Shown: positions 2,697-13,500 of the stretch, piece by piece
Numbering within the stretch: position 1 is the first letter of the stretch
How the letters are laid out: the number at the start of each line of letters is the position of its first letter
Virus record (IMG/VR): IMGVR_UViG_2698536348_000007
Span: 1-17,256 of that record
Strand: one strand, 5' to 3'
Source of the DNA: a virus
Lineage: Duplodnaviria; Heunggongvirae; Uroviricota; Caudoviricetes
Length of the DNA stretch: 17,256 bases
The notes under the pieces: model-generated
The model's input: only the letters and a program-made list of their open reading frames with translations
Database searches by the model: none
Told to the model about the DNA's origin: nothing
Position numbers and translations under genes: made by a program

Positions 2697-2720
2697 AAAT
2701 CTGCATATCATGATAAGAGT
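2684..2720 (+). promoter_or_regulatory. Candidate late promoter PR' / Q-utilisation region at the end of Q
   Basis: -35-like TTTACG (2684-2689), about 16-bp spacer, -10-like TATCAT (2706-2711), with a second -10-like GATAAG just downstream. In lambdoid phages PR' sits directly after Q. Hexamer matches are weak, so the exact placement is uncertain. Confidence 0.3.
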
Positions 2721-2741
2721 GGTTACATTGCCACGCAGCCG

Positions 2742-2766
2742 AACCCGCCGATGCGCGGGTTTTTTT
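2742..2766 (+). terminator. Intrinsic terminator 45-70 nt downstream of Q (candidate tR' or Q-gene terminator)
   Basis: GC stem cccgc/gcggg (2744-2748 / 2755-2759) followed by T7 (2760-2766). Confidence 0.5.
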
Positions 2767-2946
2767 GTACCCAGAATCCTGTGAGCTATACGGAAAGTAC
2801 ACAGAAAGGAAGGTACGACCGCAATTAATAACAAAATCTTAAAAATCTCATATGGCACTATTAGTTTTCTAAATATTGTATATTTTAAGTATTGCAGGAT
2901 AACCCTGTAACGAAGTTTGCGTAACAGCATTTTGCTCTACGAGTTT

Positions 2947-2976
2947 GCCAGCCTCCCCTGGTGGCTGGCTTTTTTT
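2947..2976 (+). terminator. Intrinsic terminator (alternative tR' candidate)
   Basis: 7-bp stem gccagcc/ggctggc (2947-2953 / 2963-2969), 9-nt loop, followed by T7 (2970-2976). Confidence 0.55.
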
Positions 2977-3094
2977 GTATCCGTTCAACGGGAATGTTAC
3001 ATACCTCACAATTAAGTCAGTTGAATGTTGTCTGCCCGGATGAGAATTTGTTAGAAAAAACTGCATGGTGAATCCCCCTGAGCGGAGGGGCGAC

Positions 3095-3120
3095 TGGTGA
3101 CGGTATAATCTCTGATTATC
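3095..3120 (+). promoter_or_regulatory. Promoter-like element: consensus -10 TATAAT (3104-3109) with a downstream -10-like repeat GATTAT (3114-3119)
   Basis: Perfect TATAAT hexamer in a non-coding interval; upstream A-tract (3054-3060); -35 is poor. A -10-like repeat just downstream is the architecture of sigma70 promoter-proximal pause sites used by Q antiterminators. Confidence 0.3.
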
Positions 3121-3208
3121 AAAACGAGAATGACGCGGGTTTAGTGGCACCGGGCTGAACTCACCGGGAGGCACCCGGCACCATGCAATGGCACATAGCG
3201 CCACTCTC

Positions 3209-3234
3209 CAGCCCCTCTCCGGAGGGGCTTTCTT
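3209..3234 (+). terminator. Intrinsic terminator-like hairpin closing a candidate ~115-nt small transcript
   Basis: Perfect 7-bp stem gcccctc/gaggggc (3211-3217 / 3222-3228) with tetraloop tccg, followed by tttctt. Confidence 0.45.
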
Positions 3235-3240
3235 ATGGAC

Positions 3241-3268
3241 AAAAAAGCCCGCGCTGGGAGACGCGGGC
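3241..3268 (-). terminator. Minus-strand intrinsic terminator convergent with the previous hairpin
   Basis: On the + strand: A6 (3241-3246) then 7-bp stem gcccgcg/cgcgggc (3247-3253 / 3262-3268). Read on the - strand this is a hairpin followed by U6. Confidence 0.4.
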
Positions 3269-3461
3269 GGCAAGGAATGAACAATGAAACGTGAAGTAAT
3301 ATTTCAGCTGGCGAATAATACCCCATAGTAATCACTCTGCGCAACTGCGCGACCTTTTTCGAATTGCGGGCTGTAGTCTCCCTTCTGCCATTGTCCTGTA
3401 ACTTCCGGACTTCAGCCCGCTCCTTATTTTACTCACAATATTATCCCGGCCGGGAGGATTC

Positions 3462-5372
3462 ATGGCATTTAAACACTATGATGTTGTCAGGGCGGCGTCG
3501 CCGTCAGACCTTGCGAAACGAATAACTCAAAAACTGAAGGAAGGGTGGCAGCCTTATGGTAGTGCGCTGATTTCGACAGCTGGTTATGGTGCGGAGTTCA
3601 TCCAGCCAGTTGTGAGTGAGGGGAGCATCTCATCACCAGAGGAGCCAGGCAACCGTCCGACGACCTCAGCGCCTTCTGTTGCGCCAGAATATTACTATGT
3701 GATCGCGCTTGCTGGTCAGTCCAATGGTATGTCATACGGTGAGGGACTGCCATTACCGGATACATTCGACAGCCCTGATCCACGTATTAAACAGTTAGCG
3801 CGTCGCAGTACGGTGACACCGGGCGGTGCAGCATGCAAATATAACGACATCATTCCGGCGGACCATTGTCTGCATGATGTGCAGGACATGAGCCGTCTTA
3901 ACCATCCGAAAGCGGACCTGTCAAAGGGGCAGTACGGAACCGTGGGGCAGGGGCTGCATATCGCCAAAAAACTGCTGCCGTTTATACCGGCGAATGCGGG
4001 CATTCTGCTGGTTCCGTGCTGTCGTGGTGGTTCAGCGTTCACCACCGGAGCTGATGGCACATACAGTGACGCGAGTGGCGCCTCGGAGAATTCAACCCGC
4101 TGGGGTGTGGACAAGCCGCTGTATAAGGACCTTATCGGTCGAACAAAAGCGGCACTGGAGAAGAACCCGAAAAATGTGCTGTTTGCCGTGGTGTGGATGC
4201 AGGGGGAATTTGATTTTGGCGGTACGCCGGCAAATCATGCCGCACAGTTTGGTGCGCTGGTTGATAAATTCCGTGCAGACCTGGCGGATATGGCAGGCCA
4301 GTGCGTCGGTGGCTCTGCTGGCGGTGTTCCCTGGATATGCGGGGACACGACGTATTTCTGGAAGCAGAAGAACGAATCCACGTACCAGACGGTGTACGGC
4401 AGCTATAAAAATAAAACGGAAAAGAATATCCATTTCGTACCGTTCATGACCGATGAGAACGGGGTGAATGTGCCGACGAACAAACCGGAAGAAGACCCGG
4501 ACATTCCGGGTATCGGTTATTACGGTTCGAAATGGCGTGACAGCTCAGCCACCTGGACGTCACAGGACAGGGCGAGCCATTTCAGTTCATGGGCTCGCCG
4601 TGGGATTATTTCCGACCGTCTGGCAACGGCGATTCTGAGCTGCGCGGGTAAGTCTTCTGCGTTTGTTAATGGTACTGCCGGGGTGGTTGTTCCAGACAGA
4701 CCGGTTACCACCTCAGAGTCTGTAATTTTTTACGATGCCAAAAAAGCTACAGACAATCAGCTGAAACCCTATGGCTGGGACGGTGTGTATGGCAGGCGCA
4801 CACTGGTTGATGACAGCGGCAATAAAGCTCTGCGAATTGAGAAAAATAACAGCGCGAAATCCTGGTCAATGTACTGTGATATTGCTGCAGACAAGGCAAA
4901 ACTTTTACTGGAAAAAGGCGGGGAAATTGCTGTCCGGTTTAAAATCCCCGAAAACGTCAATCTTGAGACAACCAGAAACAAGTATGCCTTTGGTTTGTAC
5001 TGGCGAATAGCGGAATGGCCGGGTGAGGGTGGTGAAGGCCATCTGAGTTCTTTCTTTGTCCAGACAGATAAAGCCAGTATTAATGTTGCATACCATCATA
5101 CAGTTAATCAACAAAAAGAACTTGGCACGTTTGGCGCATTCGACCATGACTGGCATACGCTTGCATTTAAATTTAAGGGCAGTAACAGCATTAATGTTAC
5201 TCCGGTGCTTGATGGTGTGGATGGACAGGCGTTTGACCTGGTGAAATGGGCCAATACTGCTAATGGACTCAACAGGTTTGTCATTACGGATATTACAGGT
5301 AGTGCAGAAACCTACCCTGTACTTATTGATACGGTGGAAGTTAAAGCAAACAAAGCTGGAGCAGCCGCATAA
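3462..5372 (+). CDS. nanS-p: NanS-p-type prophage sialate (9-O-acetyl-N-acetylneuraminate) esterase, YjhS-like; N-terminal DUF1737-like domain plus SASA/SGNH esterase domain
   Basis: 636-aa ORF with GGAGG Shine-Dalgarno 6 nt upstream. N-terminus MAFKHYDVVRAASPSDLAKRITQKLKEGWQPYG and the ALAGQSNGMSYGEG...VVWMQGEFD esterase core match the nanS-p/yjhS family found downstream of stx in Stx phages, from memory. Sits in the Q-to-holin moron locus. Confidence 0.85.
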   Translation: MAFKHYDVVRAASPSDLAKRITQKLKEGWQPYGSALISTAGYGAEFIQPVVSEGSISSPEEPGNRPTTSAPSVAPEYYYVIALAGQSNGMSYGEGLPLPDTFDSPDPRIKQLARRSTVTPGGAACKYNDIIPADHCLHDVQDMSRLNHPKADLSKGQYGTVGQGLHIAKKLLPFIPANAGILLVPCCRGGSAFTTGADGTYSDASGASENSTRWGVDKPLYKDLIGRTKAALEKNPKNVLFAVVWMQGEFDFGGTPANHAAQFGALVDKFRADLADMAGQCVGGSAGGVPWICGDTTYFWKQKNESTYQTVYGSYKNKTEKNIHFVPFMTDENGVNVPTNKPEEDPDIPGIGYYGSKWRDSSATWTSQDRASHFSSWARRGIISDRLATAILSCAGKSSAFVNGTAGVVVPDRPVTTSESVIFYDAKKATDNQLKPYGWDGVYGRRTLVDDSGNKALRIEKNNSAKSWSMYCDIAADKAKLLLEKGGEIAVRFKIPENVNLETTRNKYAFGLYWRIAEWPGEGGEGHLSSFFVQTDKASINVAYHHTVNQQKELGTFGAFDHDWHTLAFKFKGSNSINVTPVLDGVDGQAFDLVKWANTANGLNRFVITDITGSAETYPVLIDTVEVKANKAGAAA

Positions 5373-6261: not shown

Positions 6262-6795
6262 ATGAGCAGGAAATTCCGCTATGGTTTATCAGCGGTCGTT
6301 CTGGCGCTGATTGCTGCGGGCGCTTCTGCGCCTGAAATCCTCGACCAGTTTCTTGACGAAAAAGAAGGTAACCACACCACGGCATACCGTGATGGTGCGG
6401 GTATCTGGACTATCTGCCGCGGTGCCATCCTGGTGGATGGCAAACCTGTCGTTCCGGGCATGAAGTTGTCGAAGGAAAAATGCGACCGGGTTAACGCCAT
6501 TGAGCGTGATAAGGCGCTGGCATGGGTGGAGAAAAACATCAGAGTGCCACTGACCGAACCGCAGAAAGCGGGCATCGCGTCATTCTGTCCGTACAACATC
6601 GGGCCTTCGAAATGCTTCACCTCAACGTTTTACCGGAAACTGAACGCAGGAGACCGGAAAGGTGCATGTGCTGAAATCCGCCGATGGATATATGACGGCG
6701 GCAGGGACTGTCGGAACCGCTCAAATAACTGTTACGGGCAGGTATCGCGGCGTGACCAGGAGAGCGCGCTGGCGTGCTGGAGTATCGACAGATAA
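6262..6795 (+). CDS. R: SAR endolysin (R21-type, T4-lysozyme-like muramidase, GH24)
   Basis: 177-aa ORF with a Gly/Ala-rich N-terminal signal-anchor-release segment (YGLSAVVLALIAAGASAPE) and catalytic signature EGNHTTAYRDGAGIWTICRG (E...D...T). Immediately follows the holin; GGGGAGAG Shine-Dalgarno. Confidence 0.9.
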   Translation: MSRKFRYGLSAVVLALIAAGASAPEILDQFLDEKEGNHTTAYRDGAGIWTICRGAILVDGKPVVPGMKLSKEKCDRVNAIERDKALAWVEKNIRVPLTEPQKAGIASFCPYNIGPSKCFTSTFYRKLNAGDRKGACAEIRRWIYDGGRDCRNRSNNCYGQVSRRDQESALACWSIDR

Positions 6796-6879
6796 GCAGA
6801 ATATTCTGCTGAAAAATGCCGTTGACCAACGCGAACGGATAACACGAAATCCTGCGAACTGGCAAAATTTAAGTGAGTA

Positions 6880-7593: not shown

Positions 7594-7618
7594 GCCAGCT
7601 CAATCGCTGGCCTTTTTT
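7594..7618 (+). terminator. Intrinsic terminator after Rz/Rz1
   Basis: Stem gccagc/gctggc (7594-7599 / 7606-7611) with 6-nt loop, followed by T6 (7613-7618). Confidence 0.6.
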
Positions 7619-7669
7619 ATGAGGAGAGATATAACCTGAATCAATGCCAGTGCATTATCAACAAATGGA

Positions 7670-8251
7670 TCACTGGGTAAGCTCGTTTGGTTTTAAATGT
7701 CCGTCGAGAATCAGATTGTGATTTTCCCGATGCAGAACCAGTGTGCCCATATAATCAGGTTTAAATCTCCATCCATTCATTTTTTTTGCAATTCTGGACA
7801 GACAGTGATTATGTGTGAAAATCACAGTAACATGATCTGATTTTGATATTTTAAGGATATTATTTACTGCGTTATCATCACATGTCGATATGTCCGGAAT
7901 AGTTGCTGTCTTACCTCCCGAAAAAAAAGTGGCTGTCTGCATTGTTCGGAGTGTGTCTGTAGAATAGAGACTGTAGTATGGAAACATTCTTCTGAATTTA
8001 TCTCCATATTGTTGAGCTTTGTTAGCTCCGTTTACTGTGATTCCCTCATGTGCTGAAAGACATATTCTTTGGGAGCGATCGCATCTTTCCCCATGCCGGA
8101 TGAGAAAAATAATGGGATGTTTCTGGTTAATCTCAGTGACATCGTTCACATCAAGTCTGACTGGAGTTCTTACAATGTATATGATGGATACAGAAACGAT
8201 TATGACAAGTAAAAATATAAGAAGAGATTTTGTTAGCGTTTGATTTAACAT
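7670..8251 (-). CDS. Ais/PmrG-family lipopolysaccharide core heptose(II)-phosphate phosphatase homologue (histidine-phosphatase superfamily) with N-terminal signal/anchor; prophage cargo gene
   Basis: Minus-strand ORF. Motifs IRHGERCDRS (RHG catalytic motif), GITV.G, LYSTDTLRT.QTA, IFTHNHCL and FKPDY align with E. coli Ais as I recall it. Hydrophobic N-terminus LLIFLLVIIVSVSIIYIV. The start at 8251 (MLNQTL..., AAGGGA Shine-Dalgarno 7 nt upstream) is preferred over the track start at 8284. Opposite orientation to the flanking phage genes, in the position lambda uses for bor. Confidence 0.75.
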   Translation of the reverse strand: MLNQTLTKSLLIFLLVIIVSVSIIYIVRTPVRLDVNDVTEINQKHPIIFLIRHGERCDRSQRICLSAHEGITVNGANKAQQYGDKFRRMFPYYSLYSTDTLRTMQTATFFSGGKTATIPDISTCDDNAVNNILKISKSDHVTVIFTHNHCLSRIAKKMNGWRFKPDYMGTLVLHRENHNLILDGHLKPNELTQ

Positions 8252-8305
8252 ATAAATTCCCTTGTCTGTGTTGAAAATGGGCATTATTATGCGTAAATCT
8301 TATGT

Positions 8306-8319
8306 AATCCTTAAGGATT
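8306..8319. promoter_or_regulatory. Perfect 14-bp palindrome AATCCTTAAGGATT in the promoter region of the Ais-like gene
   Basis: Exactly self-complementary, 22-35 bp upstream of the first in-frame ATG (8284) of the minus-strand gene, next to a CATAAT -10-like hexamer. Contains CTTAAG half-sites reminiscent of PmrA/BasR boxes (CTTAAT-like), which regulate chromosomal ais. Confidence 0.3.
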
Positions 8320-8853
8320 GTCTGACGTGGTGATATGACGCGAAATACAGTGGGTACACAGAATGCTGTGAACAACGACGAAATGGGCATTGGTAGCGGT
8401 ACTGGTGCTTTTTTTATTGGTTGGTTGCTCAAGTCTTGATAAAGCGCGTTAGCTTTTTGGTATTGCCTCTTAGGTCTGTAAAATTGCCGACGGTGTCCGG
8501 CAGTGCATGCAGGGCTGATCGTCTATGAGAACAGAATATATTGCTAAAAATGAAGTGTGCGTCAATGCTTATAAAGCATGCAATTCTGTATTTCTAACTA
8601 TTCAATAAAATAAATTCTTTCTGTCGCAGTGAATATACAAATGTTGATCAGCGCTCGATGTGGCGACGGGTTTCTATATCAGGAGACTTTGGCATTTATC
8701 CGCGAGGCAGCCTATCTGGTGCTGTAGTGGAATGAAGCGGATATAACCTAAATAAGGTTAAACATTAATCAGACATGGCTCTGCTGTGTGAAATCTGAAA
8801 ATTTACAGCAGTCATTGTGCATCAGTTTTTAACAGAGAACGTCAGAAGGTGAC

Positions 8854-11356: not shown

Positions 11357-13500
11357 TGAAAAATGAAACTAATACCATGGCGACGAAAAACGACAACGGA
11401 GCCACGCCGCGTTTTTCTCAGCGCCAGTTACAGGCGCTTTGTTCTGATATTGACAGTCAGCCTAAATGGCGCGATGCCGCAAACAAGGCCTGTGCGTATT
11501 ACGATGGTGACCAGTTGCCACCAGAAGTTCTTCAGGTACTGAAAGATCGCGGTCAGCCGATGACCATCCATAACCTCATCGCGCCTACCGTTGATGGTGT
11601 TCTGGGTATGGAGGCCAAAACGCGGACTGATCTGGTGGTGATGTCAGACGAGCCAGATGATGAAACTGAAAAACTGGCTGAAGCTATTAATGCTGAATTT
11701 GCCGATGCATGCCGCCTTGGCAATATGAATAAAGCCCGCTCTGATGCCTATGCGGAACAAATCAAGGCGGGGCTCAGCTGGGTGGAGGTCAGACGGAACA
11801 GCGATCCGTTCGGGCCTGAGTTTAAGGTGTCTACTGTCAGCCGGAATGAAGTGTTCTGGGACTGGCTCAGCCGGGAAGCTGATTTAAGTGACTGCCGCTG
11901 GCTGATGCGCCGCCGCTGGATGGATACCGATGAGGCAAAAGCCACATTCCCGGGAATGGCTCAGGTTATCGATTATGCCATTGATGACTGGCGTGGTTTT
12001 GTCGATACCACGGTTACTGAAGGCCAGCCCAGTCCGTTGATGAGTGCATGGGAAGAGTATCAGTCATGGGATCGTAAGGAGAACGAATGGCTTCAGCGTG
12101 AACGCCGTCGTGTGCTGCTTCAGGTGGTTTATTACCGTACATTCGAGCGTCTTCCGGTGATTGAACTCAGTAATGGACGGGTGGTGGCCTTTGATAAAAA
12201 TAATCTGATGCATGCGGTGGCTGTGGCATCCGGGCGGGTGCAGGTGAGAGTCGGGCGGGTAAGTCGTATTCGTGAAGCCTGGTTTGTGGGACCGCACTTT
12301 ATTGTGGATCGCCCCTGCAGTGCGCCGCAGGGGATGTTCCCGCTGGTTCCCTTCTGGGGATACCGGAAGGATAAAACCGGGGAGCCTTACGGGCTGATTT
12401 CCCGGGCCATTCCGGCACAGGATGAGGTGAATTTTCGTCGTATAAAACTGACGTGGTTGCTTCAGGCCAAACGCGTGATTATGGACGAGGATGCCACCCA
12501 GTTGTCAGACAACGAGCTGATGGAGCAGATCGAGCGTCCGGATGGCATTATTAAACTGAATCCGGCCCGAAAAAATCAGAAAAGCGTTGCTGATGTTTTC
12601 CGGGTTGAACAGGATTTTCAGGTTGCCAGCCAGCAGTTTCAGGTCATGCAGGAGTCGGAAAAACTTATCCAGGACACGATGGGGGTTTATTCCGCATTTC
12701 TCGGGCAGGATTCAAATGCATCGTCCGGCGTGGCGATCAGCAACCTGGTGGAGCAGGGAGCCACAACCCTTGCCGAAATCAACGATAACTACCAGTTTGC
12801 CTGCCAGCAGGTGGGAAGGCTGTTGCTCGCTTATCTTCTCGATGGCCTGAAAAAGCGGCGTAATCATGCGGTGGTGATTAATCGTGATGATCGCCAGCGT
12901 CGCCAGACCATTGTTCTCAATGCTGAAGGTGATAATGGTGAACTGACCAATGATATTTCAAGGTTAAATACACATATTGCGCTGGCTCCTGTTCAGCAGA
13001 CACCGGCGTTTAAGGCACAGCTTGCACAGCGAATGTCAGAGGTTATTCAGGGGCTGCCACCTCAGGTGCAGGCCGTCGTGCTCGACCTGTGGGTTAACCT
13101 TCTGGATGTGCCGCAGAAACAGGAATTTGTCGAACGTATTCGTGCGGCGCTGGGGACACCAAAATCACCGGATGAGATGACCCCGGAAGAGCAGCAGGCC
13201 GCTCAGCAGCAACAGGCCCAGGAGCAGCAACAACAGGAACTGCAGATGCGCGAAATGGCAGGCCGGGTGGCTAAACTGGAAGCAGAAGCTGCCAGGGCAC
13301 AGGCAGCTGCGCAACGGGATAATGCTGGCGCACAACGGGATGTCGCCGCGGCACAGGGACAGCGTTATGTGGATGCGCTCAACCAGGCGCATACGGCAGA
13401 AATCATTACCGGCATACAGAATATGGAACAGGAGCAGGAAGCTCTTCAGCAACAGATGCTACATACACTACAACAGCGGATGCATGAATTGCCGCTATGA
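11356..13500 (+). CDS. Portal protein (P22-like, with C-terminal Gln/Ala-rich helical extension)
   Basis: 714-aa ORF following terminase. Size and C-terminal coiled-coil (EEQQAAQQQQAQEQQQQELQMREMAGRVAKLEAEAARAQAAAQ) resemble the P22 gp1 portal barrel; synteny terminase-portal-scaffold-coat. Confidence 0.8.
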   Translation: MKNETNTMATKNDNGATPRFSQRQLQALCSDIDSQPKWRDAANKACAYYDGDQLPPEVLQVLKDRGQPMTIHNLIAPTVDGVLGMEAKTRTDLVVMSDEPDDETEKLAEAINAEFADACRLGNMNKARSDAYAEQIKAGLSWVEVRRNSDPFGPEFKVSTVSRNEVFWDWLSREADLSDCRWLMRRRWMDTDEAKATFPGMAQVIDYAIDDWRGFVDTTVTEGQPSPLMSAWEEYQSWDRKENEWLQRERRRVLLQVVYYRTFERLPVIELSNGRVVAFDKNNLMHAVAVASGRVQVRVGRVSRIREAWFVGPHFIVDRPCSAPQGMFPLVPFWGYRKDKTGEPYGLISRAIPAQDEVNFRRIKLTWLLQAKRVIMDEDATQLSDNELMEQIERPDGIIKLNPARKNQKSVADVFRVEQDFQVASQQFQVMQESEKLIQDTMGVYSAFLGQDSNASSGVAISNLVEQGATTLAEINDNYQFACQQVGRLLLAYLLDGLKKRRNHAVVINRDDRQRRQTIVLNAEGDNGELTNDISRLNTHIALAPVQQTPAFKAQLAQRMSEVIQGLPPQVQAVVLDLWVNLLDVPQKQEFVERIRAALGTPKSPDEMTPEEQQAAQQQQAQEQQQQELQMREMAGRVAKLEAEAARAQAAAQRDNAGAQRDVAAAQGQRYVDALNQAHTAEIITGIQNMEQEQEALQQQMLHTLQQRMHELPL

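Follow-up and report, generated by a model that had tools for sequence, protein, structure and literature searches.

PmrA/BasR promoters of Enterobacteriaceae, such as those of arnB/pbgP, eptA/pmrC, waaH/yibD and ugd, are built on a common plan. Two direct NTTAAK hexamers with a 5-bp spacer lie 60-100 nt before the start codon of a gene that modifies LPS charge. The PmrA box overlaps or replaces the -35 element (PMC10570014). The published half-sites, CTTAAG and XTTAAT, are 5 bp apart and bound head-to-tail, i.e. PmrA recognizes tandem repeats and not inverted repeats (PMC3973317). Chromosomal ais of E. coli, called pmrG in Salmonella, is a recognised member of the PmrA regulon (PMC1525208). 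A literature search for Ais genes carried by phages and for their control, for instance by PmrA, returned no paper. Among phage genes, Hendrix-type morons come with a promoter and a terminator of their own; as instances of control by the host, Salmonella prophage genes governed by PhoP are usually cited. PmrA boxes and host-regulated morons are both already well known. At the locus described here the two probably meet: the outer edge of a low-GC Ais/PmrG-like moron appears to carry an activator-dependent promoter run by the host regulator BasR/PmrA.

The window, i.e. the whole stretch of 17,256 nucleotides that was analysed, is a 933W-like (Sepvirinae) prophage with the gene order antirepressor, RusA, Q, NanS-p esterase, holin, lysozyme, Rz, Ais-like gene (opposite strand), terminase and portal. 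The Ais-like product of 193 amino acids (193-204 depending on the start; longest ORF 7670-8284) carries a membrane anchor at its N terminus and retains both catalytic motifs, RHGERCDR and FTHNHC, intact; RHGERCDR and THNHC are invariant in the alignment. With 202 bits against a cut-off of 142 it belongs to the NCBIfam family NF011945. It reaches 113 bits with the PmrG equivalog, which has a cut-off of 170 bits, and is therefore a paralog and not an ortholog. The phage protein belongs to the same enzyme family as chromosomal Ais and is 43-45% identical to it.

The gene separates Rz from the gene of the small terminase subunit, lies on the opposite strand, and is missing in 933W-type phages as well as in the Stx2e prophage L002. 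933W-type phages match the window from about position 8768 onward only, and the Ais-less prophage L002 matches 8327-8687 at 79%, with the right-hand cassette junction adjoining the start of this homology (Table 1). GC content is 36-39% over about 7650-8850 as against 50-55% in the flanks. Insertion relative to related phages and low GC content identify the gene as a moron. A predicted promoter of its own and a terminator complete the picture, the latter with a predicted function on the minus strand: the GC-rich hairpin behind the Rz stop codon terminates the + strand lysis genes and may, as a weak bidirectional stop, also serve the moron. Segment 7600-8900 is 100% identical to E. coli chromosomes including O104:H4 strains, occurs at ≥99% identity in 43 genomes, and shares 99.5% identity with the Stx1 phage GER2. 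In the GER2 record (MG710528.1; L001 3071-3343) the annotation covers just the last 273 bp of the Ais-like gene. The GER2 DNA nevertheless codes for all 193 amino acids, and its protein differs from that of the window by a single substitution (V27A).

Table 1. Position, strand and basis of the features of the Ais-like moron and its promoter in the window.
Feature	Position	Strand	Basis or remark
GC-rich hairpin between Rz stop and 3′ end of the Ais-like gene	7594..7611	no strand	T-run on + strand only
Ais/PmrG-like LPS core heptose(II)-phosphate phosphatase gene	7670..8251	-	translation, PGAP coordinates, NF011945
Shine-Dalgarno sequence AAGGGA, 6 nt before ATG 8251	8258..8263	-	sequence
Predicted transcription start, 5-8 nt after -10	8275..8278	-	position of the -10 element only
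Predicted -10 element AATAAT, 10 bp after the box	8283..8288	-	TATAAT matching at fixed gap
Predicted PmrA/BasR box CTTAAG-GATTA-CATAAG (direct repeat, 5-bp spacer)	8299..8315	-	consensus, matrix, conservation
Half-site 2 CATAAG, one mismatch at position 2	8299..8304	-	sequence, upstream comparison, PMC3973317
Half-site 1 CTTAAG, self-complementary	8310..8315	-	invariant in window, L005, L006, L223-225
Palindrome AATCCTTAAGGATT	8306..8319	no strand	sequence, shuffle-based chance level
Right-hand junction of the moron cassette, adjoining the palindrome	8320..8326	no strand	L002 homology starts at ~8327
Boxes of the six lineages: CTTAAG-GATTA-CATAAG; ATTAAT-TGCCT-CATAAG; CTTAAG-GACTC-CTTAAG; ATTAAG-CGTTA-TTTAAT; GTTAAG-ATTTC-CTTAAT; GATAAT-GTTCC-CTTAAG			

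The original prediction centred on a perfect 14-bp palindrome, and this is indeed present upstream of the minus-strand Ais-like gene, where it covers the expected place of a -35 element. A palindrome of this length can be expected by chance. Perfect palindromes of 14 bp or more occur four times in the window, at 2684, 6795, 8306 and 11945, and dinucleotide shuffles contain 1.03 on average, with at least one in 65% of the shuffles. The other three are TTTACGATCGTAAA at the end of the Q antiterminator gene (2684-2697), the 16-bp AGCAGAATATTCTGCT at the lysozyme stop codon (6795-6810) and CATTCCCGGGAATG inside the portal gene (11945-11958).

A perfect inverted repeat that overlaps the -35 position could serve as operator for a regulator that binds as a symmetric dimer and represses or activates the moron; this regulator might be a helix-turn-helix protein of the host or a repressor of the phage. 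Besides the chance level, the history of the sequence makes this very unlikely. In L005, L006 and L223-225, which are 76-81% related to the window, the outer arm AATC upstream of CTTAAG is replaced by CACC, CCCC or ACCC and the region contains an additional indel. Merely the 8 bp CCTTAAGG of the palindrome are retained in L005, L006, L008 and L223-225, and comparison of upstream regions revealed no inverted repeat in the more distant L007, L009, L011 and L012. The symmetric operator thus fails with the loss of one arm in close paralogs and of the whole palindrome in distant ones. A phage repressor, offered earlier as an alternative, finds no further binding sites: there is no second copy within two mismatches in the whole window, and in phage GER2, which is nearly identical, 50 kb including the cI region contain three copies within three mismatches compared to 2.6 expected, none of these hits at cI/cro. 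Nor does the cassette encode a cognate regulator near the palindrome, the phosphatase gene being its only gene. A role of the palindrome as hairpin or terminator was rejected since it has no T-run and no Rfam match. An exact scan of viral contigs found the palindrome once in each of more than 119 unrelated contigs, which is uninformative given how short a 14-mer is.

The palindrome overlaps the predicted box in part. Its core CTTAAG is half-site 1, its left arm (8306-8309) falls into the box spacer, and its right arm (8316-8319), which is not conserved, flanks the box on the upstream side and sits at the cassette junction. Given that this outer arm is variable, lies at the junction and that the symmetry is not kept in relatives, we take the symmetry to be a lineage-specific by-product of the self-complementary CTTAAG. 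The 14-bp palindrome would have arisen from this hexamer together with four flanking bases that pair by chance, and the palindromic symmetry itself is probably not functional.

The tandem arrangement is better suited to PmrA. Two direct NTTAAK-type hexamers with 5-bp spacing, as drawn from the definition NTTAAK-N5-NTTAAK in PMC3973317 and PMC10570014, were found at 8315-8299, and the predicted box matches TTAAK-N6-TTAAK at 9 of 10 core positions. Position 2, at which half-site 2 departs from the consensus, is also where CCTAAG, a verified half-site of K. pneumoniae pbgP, deviates (PMC3973317). To speak of 'CTTAAG half-sites', as in the original prediction, is incorrect: the palindrome contains a single, self-complementary CTTAAG, and the second PmrA-type half-site is CATAAG, located outside of it. 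Both in the 17-kb window and in 50 kb of phage GER2, no sequence other than the predicted box comes within one mismatch of CTTAAK-N6-TTAAK. When the 17-mers of the window were scored with a matrix derived exclusively from seven chromosomal PmrA boxes, the predicted box, read on the gene strand, came out highest. Its 15.5 bits, a value reached by 7% of shuffles, are below the 19-25 bits of the reference sites, which were self-scored. Taken alone, the matrix score is marginally above the window-wide chance maximum and only suggestive.

Ais-like genes from different backgrounds were compared as well. The paralogs, from E. coli and other enterobacteria, are diverse (43-85% protein identity). Most of them share the same slot, flanked by lysis genes and terminase and with the gene on the opposite strand, in several different prophage backbones, and a few are plasmid-borne between IS elements. 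Six independent lineages of prophage, plasmid and chromosomal genes were distinguished (window/L005/L006, L007, L008/L238, L009/L010, L011/L012 and Dryocola L014; 44-81% identity), and their upstream DNA is unalignable apart from the box. In each lineage a box with 9-10 of 10 matches lies on the gene strand 64-71 nt before the ATG (Table 1). According to shuffles, the chance of such a box is 0.04-0.14 per sequence, and the product over the six lineages is 4e-8. In an unbiased scan of every 17-mer of the window upstream region against the other lineages, the box registers ranked highest, and one box register aligns at a consistent position in all six. Within lineages, substitutions affect the spacer (GATTA/GATCA; GACTC/GATTC/GATTT), the degenerate first base or the upstream flank; none was found in the TTAAK cores of the lineages compared. 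The hexamer cores are kept among related genes even where the promoters have diverged. Not every member of the Ais-like family has a PmrA box: none is present within 220 nt upstream of the island-borne paralogs L234 and L240.

These patterns also bear on a simpler explanation, namely a constitutive or weak σ70 promoter in which the TTAAG repeats are just AT-rich DNA that serves no dedicated regulator and recur by shared cassette ancestry. The low GC content of the region, the modest single-site statistics and the fact that every copy ultimately derives from one gene family are compatible with this view. We nonetheless consider it unlikely, because the repeat holds its position, strand and 11-bp period in six upstream regions that are otherwise unalignable, and because cores stay invariant while spacers change. 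Moreover, sequence inspection revealed no TTGACA-like -35 hexamer at 16-18 bp spacing. A promoter of this kind would be very weak if unassisted, and the missing -35 hexamer is as expected of the activator-dependent promoter that we favour.

The position of the -10 element was derived from nine Ais-like promoters anchored on the box, with TATAAT matches summed at gaps of 5-14 bp. A gap of 10 bp gave a summed match of 44/54 over the nine promoters, followed by 30 for a gap of 7 bp, and an nATAAT-like hexamer is present at the 10-bp gap in eight of the nine sequences. Elements at the same distance in K-12, read from the sequence and not from mapped starts, are TAAAAT (arnB), GAGCAT (eptA) and TAAAAC (waaH); judged in this way, the phage AATAAT is the stronger -10 element. 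Thus, the box is found in the place of a -35 element, with a -10 element at the distance usual for the family, as far as can be deduced from sequence-based -10 elements. The numbering in the cryo-EM paper implies a gap of ~8 bp, not 10, in K. pneumoniae pbgP (PMC10570014). The CATAAT previously proposed as -10 (8291-8286, 7-bp gap) is off by 3 bp: it is possible only in the lineage of the window and L005 through the repeat ATAATAAT, whereas the 10-bp gap fits all lineages, so that comparative evidence favours AATAAT at 8288-8283.

The promoter geometry has a consequence for the start codon. As the predicted -10 element overlaps the first ATG (8284-8282), this ATG cannot be part of the mRNA and the gene starts at 8251. 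The earlier preference for the second ATG is thereby upheld, and it agrees with the Shine-Dalgarno sequence AAGGGA in front of it and with the PGAP annotation.

The postulated link to PmrA/BasR is supported by several lines of evidence: the site is the best match to the matrix in the window, it is kept in position and orientation in six lineages, and it shares its geometry with K-12 arnB, eptA and waaH. The architecture as such shows only a head-to-tail dimer on a TTAA-type repeat with 11-bp period at the -35 position. Another regulator of the OmpR/PhoB family could therefore use the tandem repeat instead of or besides BasR. QseB comes to mind, as it is the closest PmrA paralog and cross-talks with PmrB, and cross-regulation between QseBC and PmrAB is established. 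Such an involvement seems improbable, however, given that the hexamers fit the PmrA consensus specifically and that the geometry is the same as at K-12 arnB, eptA and waaH. The boxes of CpxR (GTAAA-N5-GTAAA), PhoP (GTTTA repeats) and PhoB, compared by inspection, do not fit the hexamers.

Although the enzyme family is the same, the phage promoter is not a copy of the chromosomal arrangement. Upstream regions of chromosomal ais from Escherichia, Citrobacter and Salmonella contain no proximal box; the sole box, 164-213 nt upstream, is the arnB box on the divergent strand. The phage copies, in contrast, have a compact dedicated box 64-71 nt upstream. The arnB box of the K-12 ais-arnB intergenic region, CTTAAGGTTAARTTAAT (L004 3830-3850; also in L015-L032), matches at 9-10 of 10 positions toward ais too, and may be a single shared bidirectional box.

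By analogy, the self-complementary CTTAAG of the phage might act both ways and also drive the small lipoprotein gene from 8327 onwards on the + strand. The phage site reads 9/10 on both strands, just as the chromosomal ais-arnB boxes read 9-10/10 in both orientations. Yet the hexamer 10 bp rightward, CGTGGT at 8326-8331, is not -10-like, the + strand ORF of the window is decayed by stop codons, and distant paralogs read worse in reverse than forward, all of which renders bidirectional use very unlikely.

For the BasR-dependent promoter of the moron, sequence, conservation and geometry are consistent with the following course of events. The predicted PmrA box would take the place of the -35 region on the gene strand, with the AATAAT -10 element 10 bp downstream. 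BasS would activate BasR in response to Fe3+, Al3+ or mild acid, and indirectly to low Mg2+, and phosphorylated BasR would bind both hexamers as a head-to-tail dimer. Contact of this dimer with σ70 RNA polymerase would allow transcription from about 8276, giving a short leader with the AAGGGA ribosome site and translation from the ATG at 8251. The product, a putative membrane-anchored phosphatase of the Ais/PmrG type, is expected to strip the heptose(II) phosphate from the LPS core. In this way, the lysogen might remodel its LPS in concert with chromosomal arn, eptA and ais.

Unlike other PmrA/BasR promoters, the phage promoter lies among the late genes of a Sepvirinae (933W-like) prophage and on the strand opposite to them; it also has CATAAG as half-site 2, and its BasR dependence is a prediction. 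The phage Ais moron shares several traits with other host-regulated phage morons: it consists of one low-GC gene with a promoter of its own, this gene is inserted between lysis and terminase genes on the strand opposite to the late operon, and related phages lack it. The Ais moron departs from the other morons in its predicted regulator, BasR/PmrA, and in that divergent Ais-like alleles fill the slot in at least five prophage backbones.

If BasR drives the promoter, the prophage gene would be switched on in the lysogen under iron, mild acid and possibly low Mg2+. The carriers are clinically important E. coli, with 43 complete genomes including strains of the O104:H4 outbreak lineage, and the Stx1 phage GER2, and the Ais-like gene would act on LPS phosphate groups that govern binding of polymyxin and cationic peptides. 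If under BasR control, the Ais-like gene would in addition provide a clean natural example of a horizontally mobile gene that brings regulon membership along as a 17-bp box at the outer cassette edge. We tentatively extend this to a wider proposal, that a family of morons for Ais-like LPS-core phosphatases is carried by lambdoid prophages of E. coli, one of which resides in the O104:H4 outbreak lineage, and that each moron is joined to the host BasSR (PmrAB) regulon through its own compact PmrA box. Lysogens would then shift the charge of their LPS core upon Fe3+ or acid signals beyond what the chromosome provides. Tolerance to polymyxin or metals might be altered as a result, and so might sensitivity to phages whose receptor is the core. 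A bolder variant holds that the palindromic extension in the window lineage creates a bifunctional site, read either way or by a second protein. As to annotation, the analysis places the start codon at 8251, and the symmetry that was noticed first is probably not the functional feature.

Some of the related loci display arrangements of their own. In L007, three successive half-sites with an 11-bp period, CTCAAG-GAAAT-ATTAAT-TGCCT-CATAAG, precede the Ais-like allele at about 3131-3158 (-78 to -51 from the ATG). L009 and L010 are the E. coli plasmids p48B2a and pLD39-1-134kb, whose Ais-like alleles have an intact box and are flanked by IS2, IS100, ISEc12 and IS1. The Salmonella locus L236 has lost its promoter region to an IS element. 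The paralogs L234 and L240 (43-49% identity), one of which was seen on hundreds of contigs, reside in a non-phage island after an EAL-domain gene, beside hydrolases and a SPATE-type autotransporter. TraG of an IncI1 plasmid bears the same product name as Ais-like alleles (PMC4288162).

Elsewhere in the window, Q (2163-2696) and the NanS-p esterase gene (3462-5372) are separated by 765 bp (2697-3461) that contain no tRNA gene, and no stx gene was identified in this interval, where the Stx1 phage GER2 carries stx. Right of the moron, the + strand at 8327-8480 contains the remnant of a small lipoprotein gene (reading …KWALVAVLVLFLLVGCSSLDKAR, stop, LFGIAS, stop…) with stop codons inside and no start. 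A 34-aa ORF at 8335-8439 is a wrong frame of this decayed gene. A terminator-like site at 8385-8410 (+) falls into the part coding for the lipoprotein signal peptide, is homologous in L002 and L005 and is probably a false positive. Intact versions of the lipoprotein with 48-60 amino acids and a lipobox (LAGC or LVGC) are encoded in the Stx2e prophage L002 and in L005/L006.
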